Origin: Gemmatales bacterium
GTDB taxonomy: Bacteria > Planctomycetota > Planctomycetia > Gemmatales > HRBIN36
Direction: 5' to 3'
Assembly: GCA_041640595.1 (NCBI GenBank)
Contig: JBEPZY010000006.1
Span: forward strand, 64,001-128,000
Length of the DNA: 64,000 nucleotides
Part shown: positions 11,185-17,327 of the stretch, in pieces
How positions within the stretch are numbered: the stretch's first letter is position 1
How the letters are laid out: each line of letters opens with the position of its first letter
Position numbers and translations under genes: made by a program
Notes under the pieces: generated by a model
Databases searched by the model: none
What the model saw: the letters and a program-made list of their open reading frames with translations, nothing else
What the model was told of the DNA's origin: nothing

Positions 11185-11461
11185 CAGGCTCACTCGTACA
11201 GTCGCGGAATAGGTCGTTCCACCACGCGACCAATCCCATTTTACACGCCATCCGACCAACCGGGCAGATTCTTCTGCACAACCCTGTTCCTTTCGACCTG
11301 CATTTTCCCACCACCGTGAGTTGACGAATTGACCCTGCAAATCGTTACAATCCGAATCGGCTTGCACGGACGCTGCGTCAATCTCTTGCCCGCACCACTA
11401 TGAAAGCTCGCAGCTTTGCCCTCGTGAAATGCGGTTCCTGCCAGCGTATAATTGGAGCGAA

Positions 11462-13651
11462 ATGAAGGATTTGACAGAAACGATTCTGCAATACGTCCGA
11501 CGTCCCAATTATCAGCCCGTAAAGGTCAAGGCGTTGGCCCGGCGTTTGGGAATCGCTGCCGAAGATTATGCCGAGTTTCGTCGCACGGTGAAAAACCTGA
11601 TTCGGCAGGGACAACTCAGCTGGGGCCGCAATCACGTTGTGCGCCCGGCCGACCAGCAGGCCAGCGAGGGTAGCACCGTTGTGGGTATCTTTCACAAGAC
11701 CGCGGGCGGCTTTGGTTTCGTTCGCCCCCACGGCGTGGAAAAATATAGCCCCCGCGAAATCTTCGTCCCCGCTCATGCAGTCGGAGACGCCGCCACCGGC
11801 GATGAAGTGCTGGTGCGACTGACACGGCGACCCACAGGCAGTGACCGTGGGCCAGTTGGTCGCATCGTCCGTGTCGTGGAGCGTGCCTCCCACCATTTCG
11901 TTGGCACCTACGTGGAACGCGGTGGGGAAGGTTTTGTCATCGTGGACGGCACACAATTCAACGAACCGATCTGGGTCGGTGACGCCGGCGCCAAAGACGT
12001 TCGCCCGCAGGACAAAGTGGTCGTGGAAATTGTGCGTTTTCCCTCCCCTGGTTTACCTGGCGAGGGTGTCATTACAGAGGTTCTGGGACCGCGCGGCGCC
12101 CCAGGTGTGGACACCCTTTCGGTTATCCGTGCCTTCAATTTGCCGGTGGCTTTTTCCGCAGAAGCGCTCGCAGAAGCTCGCCAGCAAGCCGAACGATTCC
12201 GCGAAGACGATCTCCAGGGACGCGAGGATTTTACTTCCTGGCTCACTATTACTATTGACCCGGAAGATGCCCGCGATTTCGATGACGCCGTTTCGCTCAG
12301 TTATGATTCCCATCGCCGCCACTGGCATCTGGGCGTGCATATTGCCGACGTGTCGCATTTCGTTCCGCCGGGCAGTGCCCTGGATCGTGAGGCACGCGAG
12401 CGAGGCAACAGCGTTTACCTGCCGCAACGGGTTCTGCCCATGCTGCCCGAGGTGCTGTCAAATCACCTGGCCAGTTTGCAACAGGGCCGCGTGCGCTATG
12501 TCAAGAGCGTGCTGATGGAGTTCACCCAGCACGGCCAGCGGGTGCACACACGCTTTACCGAAGCAGCCATTCGTGTGGCTCGGCGATTTACTTACACCCA
12601 GGTCCAGCAAATTCTCGATGCTGCCGGTGACCAGCACCAGCTCGCCAAGCTCCAGCAAAGCCTGCAACTATCGCCGCAATTGTTGGACCTCTTGTTCCGT
12701 ATGCGCGACTTCGCCATGATTCTGCGCGAGCGGCGCAAAAAACGAGGCGCTCTGGAGCTTTACATACCGGAAGTCGAACTGGAATACGATGCCGAGGGCC
12801 GGGTTTGCGGTGCGCATTACGTTCCCCATGACATCAGCCATCAGATTATCGAGGAATTCATGCTGGCAGCGAATGAAGCGGTTGCCGAACATCTGCAATC
12901 GCTCGGTGTGCCCTTTTTACGCCGCATCCACGCTCCTCCAACACCGCACAAACTCCGGGAGTTCGCGGAATTCGCACGGGAGCTCGGATATGACATTGAC
13001 CCCCGCTATGCTACCGATCGCTTCCAGTTGCAGCGCGTGCTTGAACAATCGCGGCATCGCCCGGAGGTTCACGCTGTTCATTACGCCTTACTACGCAGCC
13101 TCAAACAGGCCGAATACAGCCCCGTGGAAGAAGGCCATTACGCCCTGGCCAGCGAGCATTACTGCCACTTCACTTCTCCCATTCGCCGGTATCCCGATTT
13201 GACAGTGCATCGCTTGCTCAGCCGCTGGCTGCACACCGGCAAAGTCAGCGCTGACGAACAGGAACTGCTGGCTCTGGGAGCGCATTGCAGTTTCACGGAG
13301 CGCCGCGCTGATGAAGCCGAACGTCAGCTCATCCGCATGAAACTCCTCGCTTACTTGAGCGAACGAGTCGGCATGGAGCTGGAGGCGGTTATTACTGGAG
13401 TTGAGCCATTTGGGTTCTTTGCTCAGTCCCCTTTGCTCCCGGTGGATGGTCTGGTTCATGTGAGCAGCCTGACCGACGATTACTACTACCACGACGAAAC
13501 TACGCACAGCCTGATCGGTCGCCGGACGAAACGGCGCTTCCGTCTCGGTGATCGCGTCCGGGTCAAAGTCGTCCACGTGGACCAATACCGCCACGAACTG
13601 GATTTCCGCGTCGCCGACCTGGATAAACGCCACGAACCACGAGGCCGTTAG
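11462..13651 (+). CDS. rnr: Ribonuclease R
   Basis: TIDPEDARDFDDA catalytic motif, HFTSPIRRYPDL, N-terminal cold-shock domains and C-terminal S1. Confidence 0.96.
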   Translation: MKDLTETILQYVRRPNYQPVKVKALARRLGIAAEDYAEFRRTVKNLIRQGQLSWGRNHVVRPADQQASEGSTVVGIFHKTAGGFGFVRPHGVEKYSPREIFVPAHAVGDAATGDEVLVRLTRRPTGSDRGPVGRIVRVVERASHHFVGTYVERGGEGFVIVDGTQFNEPIWVGDAGAKDVRPQDKVVVEIVRFPSPGLPGEGVITEVLGPRGAPGVDTLSVIRAFNLPVAFSAEALAEARQQAERFREDDLQGREDFTSWLTITIDPEDARDFDDAVSLSYDSHRRHWHLGVHIADVSHFVPPGSALDREARERGNSVYLPQRVLPMLPEVLSNHLASLQQGRVRYVKSVLMEFTQHGQRVHTRFTEAAIRVARRFTYTQVQQILDAAGDQHQLAKLQQSLQLSPQLLDLLFRMRDFAMILRERRKKRGALELYIPEVELEYDAEGRVCGAHYVPHDISHQIIEEFMLAANEAVAEHLQSLGVPFLRRIHAPPTPHKLREFAEFARELGYDIDPRYATDRFQLQRVLEQSRHRPEVHAVHYALLRSLKQAEYSPVEEGHYALASEHYCHFTSPIRRYPDLTVHRLLSRWLHTGKVSADEQELLALGAHCSFTERRADEAERQLIRMKLLAYLSERVGMELEAVITGVEPFGFFAQSPLLPVDGLVHVSSLTDDYYYHDETTHSLIGRRTKRRFRLGDRVRVKVVHVDQYRHELDFRVADLDKRHEPRGR

Positions 13652-13793
13652 GCGTTTTCCTGGCTATTCCGGGTTCCAATACCTCGGAACTGGTCATCGT
13701 GTAATCGTTTTCCCATCTGCCGTTGACCGTTTGACTACCACCAGAGCCAGGCCGCCCACCGACCACTACCCGTGTTGTTTCAGCACAAACATG

Positions 13794-13814
13794 TGGTAAG
13801 CGGGGTACTTACCA
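13794..13814. promoter_or_regulatory. Perfect 7-7-7 inverted repeat TGGTAAG-N7-CTTACCA (operator or hairpin candidate)
   Basis: Seen directly in the rnr / TM-SAVED intergenic region; function unknown. Confidence 0.3.
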
Positions 13815-13897
13815 GCTTACAGATTCCCCCATACCGAACACTAAACGCTTCCGCCCATGCCCTGCTCCGCCCTGCATAGCGCGAAAGCAGTCGCACT

Positions 13898-13991
13898 GTC
13901 AGAACGCACCTCGGAACGGTTTCAAACGTGTCACCCCTTTTGTTTTTCTCGCCTCATCCTCGTCAGAACGCGTCTCGGGACGGGTTCCAAC
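13898..13991 (+). repeat. Two imperfect 30-nt direct repeats separated by a 34-nt unique spacer (degenerate CRISPR-like mini-array or REP-like doublet)
   Basis: GTCAGAACGCACCTCGGAACGGTTTCAAAC (13898-13927) vs GTCAGAACGCGTCTCGGGACGGGTTCCAAC (13962-13991), 25/30 identical. Confidence 0.7.
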
Positions 13992-14130
13992 CCGTGAACG
14001 CCTTAGCGGTGAGGAGGGGCTGAAACTGTAGCAAACGACTGAACGCGGATAGCAAAGGGGTGCCTGATCATCAAATACGCAAGCGGGCTGGGGTTTCGCA
14101 ATGTTTGACCCGCCTGGAAGCGGCTACTAA

Positions 14131-14212
14131 GGACTGCTAGCCAGGCACCTTGTCTCACCGAAATACCGGCGGGACTGCTAACCAGGCGATTTTGTGTCAC
14201 TAATAGCGGGAG
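14131..14212 (+). repeat. Imperfect ~41-nt tandem duplication
   Basis: GGACTGCTAGCCAGGC at 14131 and GGACTGCTAACCAGGC at 14172 (15/16), with further gapped similarity (TTGTcTCAC..AATAcCGG vs TTGTgTCAC..AATAgCGG). Confidence 0.7.
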
Positions 14213-14292
14213 GCTTTCGTTAATCCATCAGGGGAAATGGCGGTGTAAGGCAGCGCATCGCCAGGACAATTTCCCTGTTGCAGGGAGATGCC

Positions 14293-14793
14293 ATGCTGGA
14301 GTGGCTTGGGCAAATCGCCTGGAGTGCTGTCACTGGCGGGGTAGGTGTGGTCGCAGGATGGCTACTCAACGAATGGCGGAACAAATACCGTCTGCATGTC
14401 ATGCGCAAACGCCTGGATGAATTGAGCCGTGAACGCGGATGCGCAGAAGCGGTTCTCATTGTTTCCAACCGCGAGGATATCCGCCCCAGTGTGGAACGTT
14501 ACTTGCGGGAACAGCAAAAACCGCACTTACCCACGTTCCACGTTCATCGCCCGGAGCTATTCAGCGATGACGAGACCGAATGGCACGGATTTATCGAATC
14601 CGTACGCAGGGAAGCGCAAAATCTACGCCAGCATGGGCCGACACGAATTTTGTTGTTCACCAACGTCCCTGTCGCCATGGGCATCTGTTTGGGAGCCTTA
14701 CTGGATAACGGCCCGGAGGTCGTGGTGCATCACTACTTCAACGGCATGTATCGCCCCGTAAGCCGGTTAGCCTCGGAGGTCGCTAAACTTTGA
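14293..14793 (+). CDS. N-terminal TM helix + SAVED/CARF-like (single half) domain protein, 166 aa
   Basis: Hydrophobic N-terminus (IAWSAVTGGVGVVAGWLL) followed by a basic stretch; AVLIVSNREDI..V..YL and RILLFTNVPVAMGICLGALL..VVVHHYFNGMY resemble the C-terminal half of SAVED; GGGAG RBS before ATG 14293. Confidence 0.7.
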   Translation: MLEWLGQIAWSAVTGGVGVVAGWLLNEWRNKYRLHVMRKRLDELSRERGCAEAVLIVSNREDIRPSVERYLREQQKPHLPTFHVHRPELFSDDETEWHGFIESVRREAQNLRQHGPTRILLFTNVPVAMGICLGALLDNGPEVVVHHYFNGMYRPVSRLASEVAKL

Positions 14794-14813
14794 CCGACTC
14801 AAGAGGGCAAACC

Positions 14814-16178
14814 ATGAACAAGGACCTACCACCCGATCAACTAATTGGCGAATGGCTGAGCGATTTTGTGCCCGAAGCTGAGCGCCTGCAACCTGAAGCG
14901 AGCGCTGACAAAGAGGCCAGTCCTGATTCCGCGACTTCGGACTCAGAAAGCAGGAATCTGTCGCCCGCTTCTGATACCGCGAATACGAACCGCGTCGTTC
15001 CTGCTCGCAATCGCACTGATTCCGAAACGGAACCCCACTCCTTTTCGGAAGCCCAGCTGAGCCACGTGGATGTGGGGCGTATGGTTTTCAGTTTCTACTG
15101 CATTGCTCCGGATAGCGAATCTGCTAAAGCTCGAGTCGAGGCGGTTTATCAGCGGCTGCTCCAACTGGTCGAACAGTCCTCGGATTTCCCGCAACCGGAA
15201 CGAGGTAACTTTGGCACTCCTACTGTGCGCTGGCTGGATTGGTCTCTGCAAGCGCCTCAGACCAACTTGAGCTGGTGCGGAGTTTGTGAGCTGATTCTGG
15301 AAGCCGAGCATCTCCAGCAGGGTCAGGGGTGTCTCTGGCGGCTGGAGCAGTATAAACGGTTCGCCCGCTGGCTTGACCGGCTGTTGGGGCAGGCAATTAC
15401 CGAAACAGCCGCCGAGTTTCCTTCGGTGCGACTTGACGATAAACCGTTCCTGTGGACGCTGGCTCTCGATCTCACGCCGCGCGTGGTTTGGACTGACCAG
15501 GCACTGCAGCAATATCGCCGTTCGCTCACCGACTTGCTCCGGGTTCGCTCCGAAGATTCCCATATTTACACCGACCGTGCCATGCAAGAATTACTGCGCA
15601 GCAACCTGGCCTATACGACCGAAGAGTTGCAGCTATTGCATTACAATACCGGCCTCATCTACGTGGCTCATGAGCGATTCTGTAGCCGCGACGGTTTCGG
15701 TTACGTGCAACAGGCCCTGGTGGATAGCAACGCCCTGATTCGCGCCGTTCGGGCATGCTTACTGCTATTCCGGAAGGAATTGAACGACCGGCTCCACAAA
15801 TGGCTGCAGGAACGATTACGCGGACGGCGACTGCGACGTGTCCTGCGGGAAACATTCAGCTATGCCAGCCTCGCTTCCCAGCTACTTCGGCAATTAGATG
15901 AGCAAGCCTTCTGTGCGACCCGCCAGGTCGGCCACCAGCAGACAGTCTTTCGTGCCTTGCTGCACCGTTATCACGTCCCGGAACTGGTCGCCGGTTTACA
16001 GCAACAGGTAACCGAGCTGCATCATCGTATTGCCGACTTGCAGAATCAGTTTCAGGCGAGCCAGCTGCGTTTGATTAATGTGCTGGTGGTAATTCCGGCT
16101 CTGTATTACCTCTGGCGTTTCGTGCATGAATTCTGGCCCGTTTTGCAGCCCCTTTTTGACGCATGGCTGGGCCTCTGA
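14814..16178 (+). CDS. CorA/RMD1-like membrane protein (454 aa) with low-complexity N-terminus and C-terminal TM segment
   Basis: By-eye alignment to the convergent 16251-17327 protein; long C-terminal helix then a hydrophobic segment; AGAGGG RBS; starts 20 nt after the upstream stop. Confidence 0.65.
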   Translation: MNKDLPPDQLIGEWLSDFVPEAERLQPEASADKEASPDSATSDSESRNLSPASDTANTNRVVPARNRTDSETEPHSFSEAQLSHVDVGRMVFSFYCIAPDSESAKARVEAVYQRLLQLVEQSSDFPQPERGNFGTPTVRWLDWSLQAPQTNLSWCGVCELILEAEHLQQGQGCLWRLEQYKRFARWLDRLLGQAITETAAEFPSVRLDDKPFLWTLALDLTPRVVWTDQALQQYRRSLTDLLRVRSEDSHIYTDRAMQELLRSNLAYTTEELQLLHYNTGLIYVAHERFCSRDGFGYVQQALVDSNALIRAVRACLLLFRKELNDRLHKWLQERLRGRRLRRVLRETFSYASLASQLLRQLDEQAFCATRQVGHQQTVFRALLHRYHVPELVAGLQQQVTELHHRIADLQNQFQASQLRLINVLVVIPALYYLWRFVHEFWPVLQPLFDAWLGL

Positions 16179-16250
16179 GCCGGAATAGACGCAACCCAGG
16201 CACCAGGAGCACCTGCAAAATCAGACACAGGCAGATCGAAGGTTTTACGA

Positions 16251-17327
16251 TCAATGCCGGAACAAAAATAGCGCCACCAGGTCAATGATAAACAGCAGTA
16301 CGATGGCCGCTTCCATCCAGAGCATGCGCCGCTCATAAATCTCGCTCTGGAAAATCTGGTACAGGTGGTCGAGCTGGCTCAGACGTTGCTGCACACTTTG
16401 CCGCCAGTCGTCCAGATGGAAGCGTTCTTTAGCGCCAAGATAAACCCGGGCCAGATACCAGTCGCCGAGGAATTTGGTAATGTGCGTTACCTCATCGGCA
16501 ATGCGGGTCACATCCACGCGGAAACGTCGCAGCTTCGATAAAGTTCGCCGTAACCCGAACAGGAACGCCCAGCGCATTCGCTCCAGGTCTTCGTAGGCAC
16601 GGTCGAGATACTTATCGAGCCGGTGATCCATCATGCGAAACTCTTCCAGCTGCAAATTGGCCAGCTCCAGCACGTAGAGCACATCTTCCATGTACCCTTT
16701 GGTGTCCACCACCAATGCAGCATCCCAGTCAATGACGACCAGATCGGTTCTTTCGTAGGCCCGGCGAATGCGCAAAGTCTCCTGAATCTGGTCTTCGCTC
16801 AGGGTTTCGGGCGAAGTTTGCGTGAGCAAGCCGGCAATTTCGCGGCGATTCTTCACGAACCACTCCGAAGCGTCGCCCTCCGCACCCAGGTCGGTAATGC
16901 AGAAAACGGTATAGGCTTCCGGTTCGATGATCCGGGAGCTGCGTATCAGCACAGGTCGCAAACCCTCGTACACCTCATCGCAAATCCGCCGGGCAAAACG
17001 ATCCAGCGTATCGCCGGAATCCAGTCGTGGGTCATGCAGAGCCATCAACGAACGCAGACTGTCCCCTTCCCAGGGGACGCGAAAGGTAACCGAAATCACC
17101 CCCACACCGTAAACCCGCACCAGCACTCCAACCGGACGCTCGCCAATCGTGGCGGTGACCAGAGGTTCCACTGCCAGCGGCTGATACAGCGGCAATTCGC
17201 GCGGAATCTGGCTGGACAAGCGGACAACGAAAGGCACCGCCTTTTTGGAAAGTATCTCGGTGACCAGTCCGAGGGCGATTTCGTCGGCCACGTCGAATGC
17301 GTACAGGTAAACCACCTCGCCTTTCAT
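16251..17327 (-). CDS. RMD1/DUF155-like (CorA-like fold) protein with one C-terminal TM helix
   Basis: DLVVIDWDAALV, LELANLQLEEFR, GDWYLARVY and LWMEAAIVLLFIIDL motifs typical of this family. Confidence 0.75.
   Translation of the reverse strand: MKGEVVYLYAFDVADEIALGLVTEILSKKAVPFVVRLSSQIPRELPLYQPLAVEPLVTATIGERPVGVLVRVYGVGVISVTFRVPWEGDSLRSLMALHDPRLDSGDTLDRFARRICDEVYEGLRPVLIRSSRIIEPEAYTVFCITDLGAEGDASEWFVKNRREIAGLLTQTSPETLSEDQIQETLRIRRAYERTDLVVIDWDAALVVDTKGYMEDVLYVLELANLQLEEFRMMDHRLDKYLDRAYEDLERMRWAFLFGLRRTLSKLRRFRVDVTRIADEVTHITKFLGDWYLARVYLGAKERFHLDDWRQSVQQRLSQLDHLYQIFQSEIYERRMLWMEAAIVLLFIIDLVALFLFRH

Follow-up and report, generated by a model that had tools for sequence, protein, structure and literature searches.

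A short predicted membrane protein with a single SAVED lobe in a Gemmatales genome, and the link of its family to type III CRISPR

The window studied here, a stretch of 64,000 nucleotides from one contig of a Gemmatales bacterium, holds on its forward strand a short gene (14293..14793; P0001) for a protein of 166 amino acids with a transmembrane (TM) helix and a single SAVED lobe, referred to in the following as the half-SAVED protein. Its frame of 166 codons is intact, begins with an ATG ahead of which, roughly at -12 to -8, stands the purine tract GGGAG, and its translation contains all three motifs that a first-pass annotation had quoted from the sequence. The gene lies between an RNase R gene (11429-13651) and a gene for a protein of 454 amino acids (14814..16178, forward strand, with the open frame starting at 14790), and resembles the neighbouring genes in GC and GC3. 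The reverse strand of 14293-14793 has many stops, an Rfam scan of 13600-16300 gave no match, a sigma-70 promoter scan returned 0 sites, and no defence genes lie beside the gene in the window. The 640-nt spacer 5' of the gene contains two imperfect direct repeats (13898-14004 and 14131-14187), one of 43 nt with 74% identity and a spacing of 64, the other of 16 nt with 94% identity and a spacing of 41; with two copies each, they may be operator sites or have arisen by chance.

The 19-kDa half-SAVED protein is built from three parts, all encoded on the forward strand. A predicted TM helix (residues 7-25; 14311..14367), rich in Gly, Ala and Ser and with a core that lacks acidic residues, was recognised by a hydropathy scan and falls within a helix of the AlphaFold2 model; its hydropathy is modest (Kyte-Doolittle 1.36 over residues 7-25). 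Next comes a basic stalk helix (residues 26-48; 14368..14436), which runs from the TM helix to the first strand of the protein's one SAVED lobe (residues 49-166; 14437..14790), the landmarks of which are the beta1-alpha1 loop (S58-E61), a predicted dimer helix (127-137) with G134, H147 and Y153. The AlphaFold2 model, computed from a 26-row alignment (pLDDT 84.6), consists of a single helix spanning 2-47, followed by an alpha/beta lobe of five strands at 52-159. A second hydrophobic stretch at 119-137 corresponds to a buried strand and the dimer helix, and may explain the '2 TMs' label of a PADLOC profile that matches the protein.

The lobe is recognised by the Pfam SAVED model PF18145 (residues 37-156 on model positions 65-187 of 190; 41.7 bits, cut-off 26.2) and by NCBIfam NF033611, of which residues 42-158 cover the C-terminal half only (138-258 of 261; 34.4 bits, cut-off 33). 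When the AlphaFold2 model was compared with 48,161 solved chains by VIA-align, the first 11 of the best 50 matches were all SAVED proteins, each matched over one lobe (Z 9.2-12.0), and Foldseek was concordant. Among them are Cap5 (8ysq 285-401; Z 12.0, rmsd 2.5, 109 residues aligned), AcrIII-2 (9r8s 116-235; Z 11.3) and CalpL (9eyi 383-505; Z 10.2). The best CARF protein, Cad1 (Z 8.5), ranks below the SAVED lobes, and chains of Csx15, Csx3 and Cam1 are not among the best 50 matches in the fold searches. A PDB search with the single sequence returned nothing relevant; the family profile gave 18 matches, 16 of them SAVED, led by AcrIII-2 9r8s (E 1.6e-13) and CalpL (E 9e-13). The first-pass annotation had described a TM helix, a basic helix and one SAVED half-domain within 166 aa, a description borne out by Pfam, NCBIfam, AlphaFold2 and the fold search, and the relation of the fold to CARF/SAVED, on which its proposal had depended, holds as well. 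The two tandem lobes that canonical SAVED proteins carry in one chain are absent, and no second SAVED lobe was found elsewhere in the genome, in which this gene is the sole match. A heterodimer with a second half-SAVED gene is therefore unlikely and was dropped as a candidate.

Homologues numbered 27 in a word-based search and 59 representatives in an exhaustive one. We kept 60 short homologues with a median length of 174.5 aa, after removal of 7 fragments, a near-identical copy and a read-through (P0057); an 885-aa repeat protein (P0060) was judged a chance match and likewise dropped. The short length is kept down to ~25% identity within the family, and the TM helix and the lobe are equally spaced throughout. 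The nearest cluster in the ESM Atlas has a length of 182 aa, 928 members and a score of 0.92. The longer matches (n=8) are two-lobed SAVED4-type proteins, and in 8/8 of them the profile built on the short family recognises the N as well as the C lobe, at 26-77 bits. Since the N and C lobes of these relatives are scored about equally, the specifically C-terminal character that had been ascribed to the lobe does not stand. Two SAVED4-type proteins with two lobes deserve mention for their N-terminal parts, which include a CHAT-like match in P0070 and, in P0077, a start that by eye resembles the end of a kinase domain. Longer fused forms (365-2000 aa) were absent at E 1e-5 among 7999 candidates, which is weak evidence, and searches for viral, phage and plasmid copies, one of them made with the distant member P0059, found none. 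A narrow alignment (A1) matched 0/400 other genomes of a phylum-wide sample, and the distribution of the family is patchy. All 56 members of the family alignment match the PADLOC profiles PDLC02011 (SAVED4--SAVED_TM) and PDLC01160 ('CARF, 2 TMs') at E up to 0.001, no curated cut-off being given by PADLOC, with P0061 covering positions 12-170 of the 172 in the latter, and the family is thus already catalogued.

This alignment (A3, 56 rows) is the source of all residue and TM counts given here. Near the N-terminus, 50/56 members have a hydrophobic stretch of 19 residues that scores 1.3 or more on the Kyte-Doolittle scale. Small residues abound in the TM helix, with a small-xxx-small motif in 42/56 members; an acid in its core occurs in 9/56 and is not conserved. 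Positive charge is greater after the helix than before it in 54/56 members, and the median net charge across the 20 residues that follow is +5. By the positive-inside rule, positive charge flanks the cytoplasmic side of a TM helix, and the lobe is therefore predicted to be cytoplasmic. The predicted layout of the family is thus of the Cam1 type, with an N-terminal TM helix and a cytoplasmic C-terminal sensor.

An apo homodimer model of the half-SAVED protein reached an ipSAE of 0.80, as against 0.00 for the best of 3 controls; the mark applied to this score is reached by 20/30 homodimers and 1/23 monomers of solved structure, and the score may be raised by the protein's resemblance to known SAVED/CARF structures. 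The runs share at least 98% of their contacts, with a pLDDT of at least 82. The modelled interface is formed by helix 127-137, with G134 packed against G134, a residue that is invariant in the family (56/56, A3), and the TM helices lie outside the confident interface. In the model, two lobes pair through helix 127-137 and would so recreate a SAVED domain with two-fold symmetry. Self-pairing of an unfused SAVED lobe, as had been proposed from the sequence, is supported by the length of the family members, the matches to both SAVED lobes and the passing homodimer model, the pairing itself being a prediction.

The residues of the lobe bear on what such a dimer might bind and whether it might cleave. 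Y153 is present in all 56 members and H147 in 51/56; by count on the HMMER alignment, the latter aligns with two residues of SsCalpL, H345 of its N lobe and H474 of its C lobe, and the H345A exchange in SsCalpL is described to weaken cA4 binding and oligomerisation (PMC11417357). In SAVED ring nucleases and Csx15, the catalytic His is placed in the beta1-alpha1 loop (PMC11417357, PMC13148439, PMC12751052, bioRxiv 10.64898/2026.10.26.761840). The half-SAVED family keeps the Ser of this loop in 45/56 members, and has a His there in only 5/56. The protein of the window has none, its Glu61 occupying, within one residue, the position of the catalytic His (H392/H396/H128 in CalpL, AcrIII-2/Crn5); CalpL H392E is described as nuclease-dead while oligomerising as the wild type does (PMC11417357). 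The tail Arg of SAVED ring nucleases (R361/R358/R96) is likewise not conserved, the position of AcrIII-2 R96 / CalpL R361 falling near E162-K165, where a basic residue stands in 25/56 members at most. Natural homologues with the His do exist (P0008, P0015). Given that the loop His is mostly absent, that no tail Arg is conserved and that H147 is kept, it looks from the residues as if the binding cleft has been kept and the nuclease chemistry mostly lost. A membrane-bound ring nuclease of Csx3-like fold, which had been named as an alternative, is not favoured by these data: the fold ranks with SAVED lobes, and the catalytic His is mostly missing. PF09620 (Csx3) does not match the protein at E up to 0.1, while it matches a neighbour of a homologue (L056:1463-1813) at E 1.2e-20.

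The view of SAVED as two fused CARF domains is disputed, and Csx15 has been proposed as the SAVED ancestor (bioRxiv 10.64898/2026.10.26.761840). We computed a tree of 66 lobes over 114 columns (LG+G4), comprising 46 single lobes, 7 N lobes, 11 C lobes and 2 Csx15 sequences, with one incomplete N lobe and 10 near-duplicate single lobes left out. In it, 45/46 single lobes are separated from every fused lobe (95/89). In an AU test, a grouping of the single lobes with the C lobes was not rejected (p 0.52), the constrained tree being 1.18 lnL better, and for this reason we make no claim as to whether the single lobe is ancestral or derived.

For the genomic context, 17 genomes with strong matches were taken as carriers, 13 from the sample of the order (the host genome included) plus G402, G405, G736 and G763. 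Weak matches within the order (G537 and G653, E ~3e-6) were left out, as were nine weak matches from Armatimonadota (E 6e-13 or weaker), of which those inspected are longer SAVED proteins. In 7/17 carriers the half-SAVED gene lies beside cas, CARF or csx3 genes. It stands between cas6 and a row of cas2, RT, cas1 and array in G506, and at the end of a row of array, cas1, RT and cas2 in G607, where cas10 and cmr3 follow within ~7 kb. Similarly, it precedes cas6 and a CARF nuclease gene in G408, is placed between a CARF effector gene and cas10, csm2 and csm3 in G736, follows cas6 in G763 and a CARF-HEPN-type gene in G405, and has csx3 directly downstream in G407. Going by ORF lists and by Pfam scans of a selection of neighbours, the gene is an orphan in 9/17 carriers, including the host genome, and in G564 it sits too near a contig end to be classified. 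Orphan copies keep the same conserved residues as those embedded in CRISPR loci, and no nucleotidyltransferase (CD-NTase) gene was found beside the half-SAVED gene of the window or strong members among the neighbours inspected or scanned. Among the 11 metagenome loci, L017 alone has the gene within a III-A operon, where it follows a Schlafen-Csx15 fusion and a stand-alone Csx15 in tandem (L017:8552-9834, +); the remaining 10 are short, look like orphans or coincide with the gene of the window. Dedicated ring nucleases thus adjoin the half-SAVED gene in L017 (Csx15) and in L056 (Csx3).

The family is linked to type III CRISPR beyond such adjacency. Among 251 genomes, the Cas10 palm domain (E 1e-10) was found in 11/13 carriers and 43/238 non-carriers (Fisher p 1e-6; by genus about 8/9 against 29/83, p 0.003), p values that overstate the association, since related genomes are not independent and habitat is a possible confounder. 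The two carrier exceptions are G417, in which Cas10 is cut by a contig end, and G407, which is 94% complete and in which neither Cas10 nor RAMP genes were found; the latter counts against a strict dependence on Cas10, though its csx3 neighbour points to type III. Cas10 was not found in G763 either. In the host genome itself, four GGDD-containing Cas10 genes (III-A, III-B and two III-D-like) lie in other regions or on other contigs, and it has Csm6-like and Card1-like CARF genes as well.

Several other features came to light in these genomes. By a simple k-mer scan, the host genome holds very long CRISPR arrays, one of ~247 units (C1:359748-377914) and one of more than 300 (C8:1-21060). Its 16S rRNA gene (L084:11945-14498, -; about 23944-26497 of contig C1) measures 2554 nt as against the 1533 positions of the model, and contains an ORF for a LAGLIDADG_2 homing endonuclease (L084:12751-13521, E 3e-35), an intron-like insertion in a bacterial 16S gene. 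In G607 (L054:5775-9353, +), a sigma-factor-like gene (weak NCBIfam matches), an uncharacterised gene and a gene with a CARF_m2-Lon match (E 2e-93) lie directly upstream of the III-B cas10, an arrangement similar to CalpL/T/S with a different sensor. In G405, the contig start truncates the gene upstream (L006:3-896, +), an unusual fusion in which an HD_4 domain is combined with what matches the C-terminal end of CARF-HEPN-CARF.

The 454-aa gene downstream in the window encodes a protein with a C-terminal hydrophobic helix and without any match in Pfam, NCBIfam or PADLOC, the PADLOC CorA models included. It abuts the half-SAVED gene in 4/4 genomes of the genus, while the outer neighbours differ, and occurs in 0/247 genomes beyond that genus, the 9 other strong carriers of the sample among them; because it is missing from these carriers, the family does not need it as a partner. 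The model of the 454-aa protein (pLDDT 72) is largely helical and weakly resembles the CorA-family structure 4ev6 (Z 7.1, rmsd 5.7, 210 residues aligned), a likeness within the background range. Seven CorA/ZntB/Mrs2 chains are among its top 17 structural matches, Foldseek gave no match at E 0.001, and ESM Atlas features place the protein near unnamed clusters and MJ0711_N (0.93-0.94). Within the genus it is a possible partner of the half-SAVED protein. A gene downstream of the half-SAVED gene in L018 was considered as a homologue of this partner and proved to be a kinase instead. Converging on the 454-aa gene, a 358-aa ORF of the window (16251-17327, -) ends in a hydrophobic helix too and has no Pfam or PADLOC match; it is reminiscent of RMD1/CorA-like proteins, to which it may be related.

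Taken together, we consider it somewhat likely that the half-SAVED protein is an ancillary membrane effector of type III CRISPR, which would sense cA4 as a homodimer of single lobes and, in this genome, act in trans. The sensor would be a pair of single SAVED lobes packed through helix 127-137, and the cleft over the dimer interface (S58, N124-P126, H147) would bind a cyclic oligoadenylate made by Cas10. The ligand is probably cA4, since the predicted dimer is two-fold symmetric and the neighbouring proteins (Csx15, Csx3, Card1-like and CARF7) are known as cA4-type. A symmetric cA4-like ligand, as had been proposed from the sequence, would fit Csx15 in L017, Csx3 in L056 and the Card1-like and Csm6-like CARF genes of the host genome. 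Binding might then stack or rearrange the dimers into a higher oligomer, as in the filaments of SAVED and Csx15 proteins or the dimer of dimers of Cam1. Such an oligomer could cluster the TM helices, depolarise the membrane and arrest the infected cell, by analogy with Cam1, Cap1, Csx23 and the TM-SAVED filaments, and separate ring nucleases would serve as the off-switch. In the host genome the gene would have left its cas operon and work in trans with one or more of the four Cas10 complexes. Several observations speak against an effector: the TM helices lie outside the confident interface and there is no conserved pore-lining acid, unlike D17 of Cam1; in 9/17 carriers the gene is away from cas genes, and no Cas10 was found in G407 or G763; and single lobes of the Csx15 type are described as nucleases or sponges (bioRxiv 10.64898/2026.10.26.761840; PMC13148439).

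This last point leads to an alternative which we regard as unlikely yet of some weight, namely that the dimer dampens the signal at the membrane by sponging up cA4 or cleaving it slowly, like Csx15 and AcrIII-2, with the helix as a mere anchor. The closest solved relatives by sequence, AcrIII-2 (9r8s) and CalpL, are indeed ring nucleases; Csx15 homodimers are SAVED-like, some being described only to sponge, and TMH-Csx15 fusions are reported (see above for sources). An orphan position would suit a regulator acting in trans, and the half-SAVED gene is often found beside other effectors (L057, L063, L006). Cleavage is argued against by the rarity of the loop His (5/56), by the Glu aligned there in this protein, which in CalpL H392E goes with a dead nuclease, and by a tail-Arg position that is basic in 25/56 members at most. 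Moreover, separate ring nucleases already adjoin the gene in 2 loci, and a conserved TM helix would be superfluous for a sponge. Orphan copies might instead have been recruited to another nucleotide signal, be it CBASS-type or a housekeeping cyclic dinucleotide, or be membrane proteins that need no ligand. The 9/17 orphan carriers with the gene among housekeeping genes, the Cap4/Cap5 lobes of CBASS among the top fold matches and G407 with its lack of detectable Cas10 would agree with this; it is made quite improbable by the absence of nucleotidyltransferase genes beside the strong members among the neighbours inspected or scanned, by conserved residues that are the same in orphan and CRISPR-embedded copies, and by the fact that nearly all orphan carriers have Cas10 elsewhere.

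Two further explanations concern the gene pair and the origin of the short frame. In the host genus, the half-SAVED protein could gate the CorA-like protein encoded downstream, the channel then being a separate polypeptide. That the genes abut in all four genomes of the genus while their flanks differ, that CorA-family channels are the top structural matches of the partner model and that CorA-like proteins are described as type III effectors (PMC12669027) speak for such a two-gene module. We nevertheless give it a very low probability, given a partner found in 0/247 genomes outside the genus, a Z of ~7 that for a helical model of pLDDT 72 is in the background range, and the lack of a PADLOC CorA match. 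As for the concern of the first-pass annotation that the gene might be the dead, truncated remnant of a longer two-lobed SAVED gene, coverage of half of the NCBIfam model and a tree compatible with an ancient loss of the N lobe would be expected from it. The homologues tell otherwise, as there are 60 short ones of median length 174.5 aa with the same spacing of TM helix and lobe. The frame is intact, the genome has no second lobe, and GC and GC3 are like those of the neighbours. Recent truncation is refuted by the family data, and we hold the remnant explanation to be extremely improbable.

The effector reading can be widened into a more tentative one, which we think possible but would rather doubt as a whole. 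The half-SAVED protein would then represent an extant version of the CalpL/AcrIII-2-type SAVED sensor with just one lobe, more similar than Csx15 to true SAVED lobes and nearest to the SAVED ancestor before duplication; it would act as a homodimeric membrane effector gated by cyclic oligoadenylate (cOA) and serving Cas10 from outside the cas operon, and in the host genus it may also gate a separate CorA-like channel. If the effector reading is true, type III CRISPR would gain a very small (19 kDa) membrane effector, and no earlier TM effector would have a homodimeric SAVED lobe as its basis. To judge from the orphan copies, part of the effectors is overlooked when only cas operons are counted. 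The family also bears on the origin of SAVED, from fused CARFs or from Csx15. Because its profile matches both SAVED lobes but not the Csx15 chains, it lends itself to a direct test of whether ligands are recognised symmetrically or asymmetrically, and equally of the timing of ring-nuclease gain or loss.

Much of this has precedents, as TM-sensor effectors (Cam1, Csx23, Cap1, Cap14), single-lobe SAVED-like dimers (Csx15) and PADLOC profiles for the family are already known, and TM-SAVED effectors in general were predicted in a review (PMC9704534). In our search of the main texts of mostly open papers, we found no description of a TM protein with a single SAVED lobe; nor is the family described in the available parts of PMC12669027, 10.64898/2026.09.16.751991, PMC12751052 and PMC6546367. 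By sequence and fold, it is closest to the SAVED4 clade (CalpL Lon-SAVED, AcrIII-2/Crn5), which is likewise associated with type III. It differs from CalpL and AcrIII-2 in having one lobe per chain instead of two, no protease, a mostly absent catalytic His and a single N-terminal TM helix; with only one lobe per chain, its sensor must be a true homodimer. Among CBASS effectors, Cap14 (2TM-SAVED) and the 3TM-SAVED proteins (PDB 9om7, 9wq2/9wq3) also have TM helices fused to SAVED and match in fold and sequence, and such effectors are reported to form filaments in the membrane (PDB titles of 9om7 and 9wq2/9wq3; bioRxiv 10.64898/2026.10.26.761840). Unlike the half-SAVED family, they own a two-lobed SAVED, 2-3 TM helices, a CBASS context and 2'3'-cGAMP as ligand.

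Csx15 resembles the half-SAVED protein as a single, SAVED-like lobe that is homodimeric (for the half-SAVED protein, in the model) and associated with type III; its homodimer is described as structurally analogous to a SAVED monomer, with some members only acting as sponges (bioRxiv 10.64898/2026.10.26.761840; PMC13148439). In contrast to the half-SAVED family, it has the catalytic loop His. The half-SAVED protein does not match the PADLOC Csx15 models at E up to 1, nor does the family profile match the Csx15 chains 9teu, 9tet and 9ylu at the same threshold, while a true Csx15 used as positive control (L017:9457-9834) matches PDLC01376 at E 4.5e-39. By sequence, the half-SAVED family thus appears distinct from Csx15, although the TMH-Csx15 fusions reported in the Csx15 preprint (bioRxiv 10.64898/2026.10.26.761840) could overlap with it. 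Csx23, Cap1, Cam2 and Cam3 are small membrane-associated ancillary proteins of type III systems as well; their soluble domains, described as a distinctive fold, a CARF-like tetramer, a REC domain and a helical domain, respectively, include no SAVED lobe in these descriptions (PMC12642688, PMC11229360), and those of Cam2 and Cam3 do not fit the half-SAVED protein, for which both identities were rejected (PMC11229360). Cam1 differs in its sensor, which is a canonical CARF and not a SAVED lobe, and in its TM aspartate, which the half-SAVED family does not conserve, and no Cam1 chain is among the PDB matches of the half-SAVED profile. Cam1 is reported to be a tetramer of two dimers that responds to cA4 with depolarisation, with D17 in its TM helix (PMC10808066). 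Like the half-SAVED protein, it combines an N-terminal TM helix with a dimeric nucleotide sensor in ~200 aa and is associated with type III, and it may serve as the best working analogy for the half-SAVED protein.
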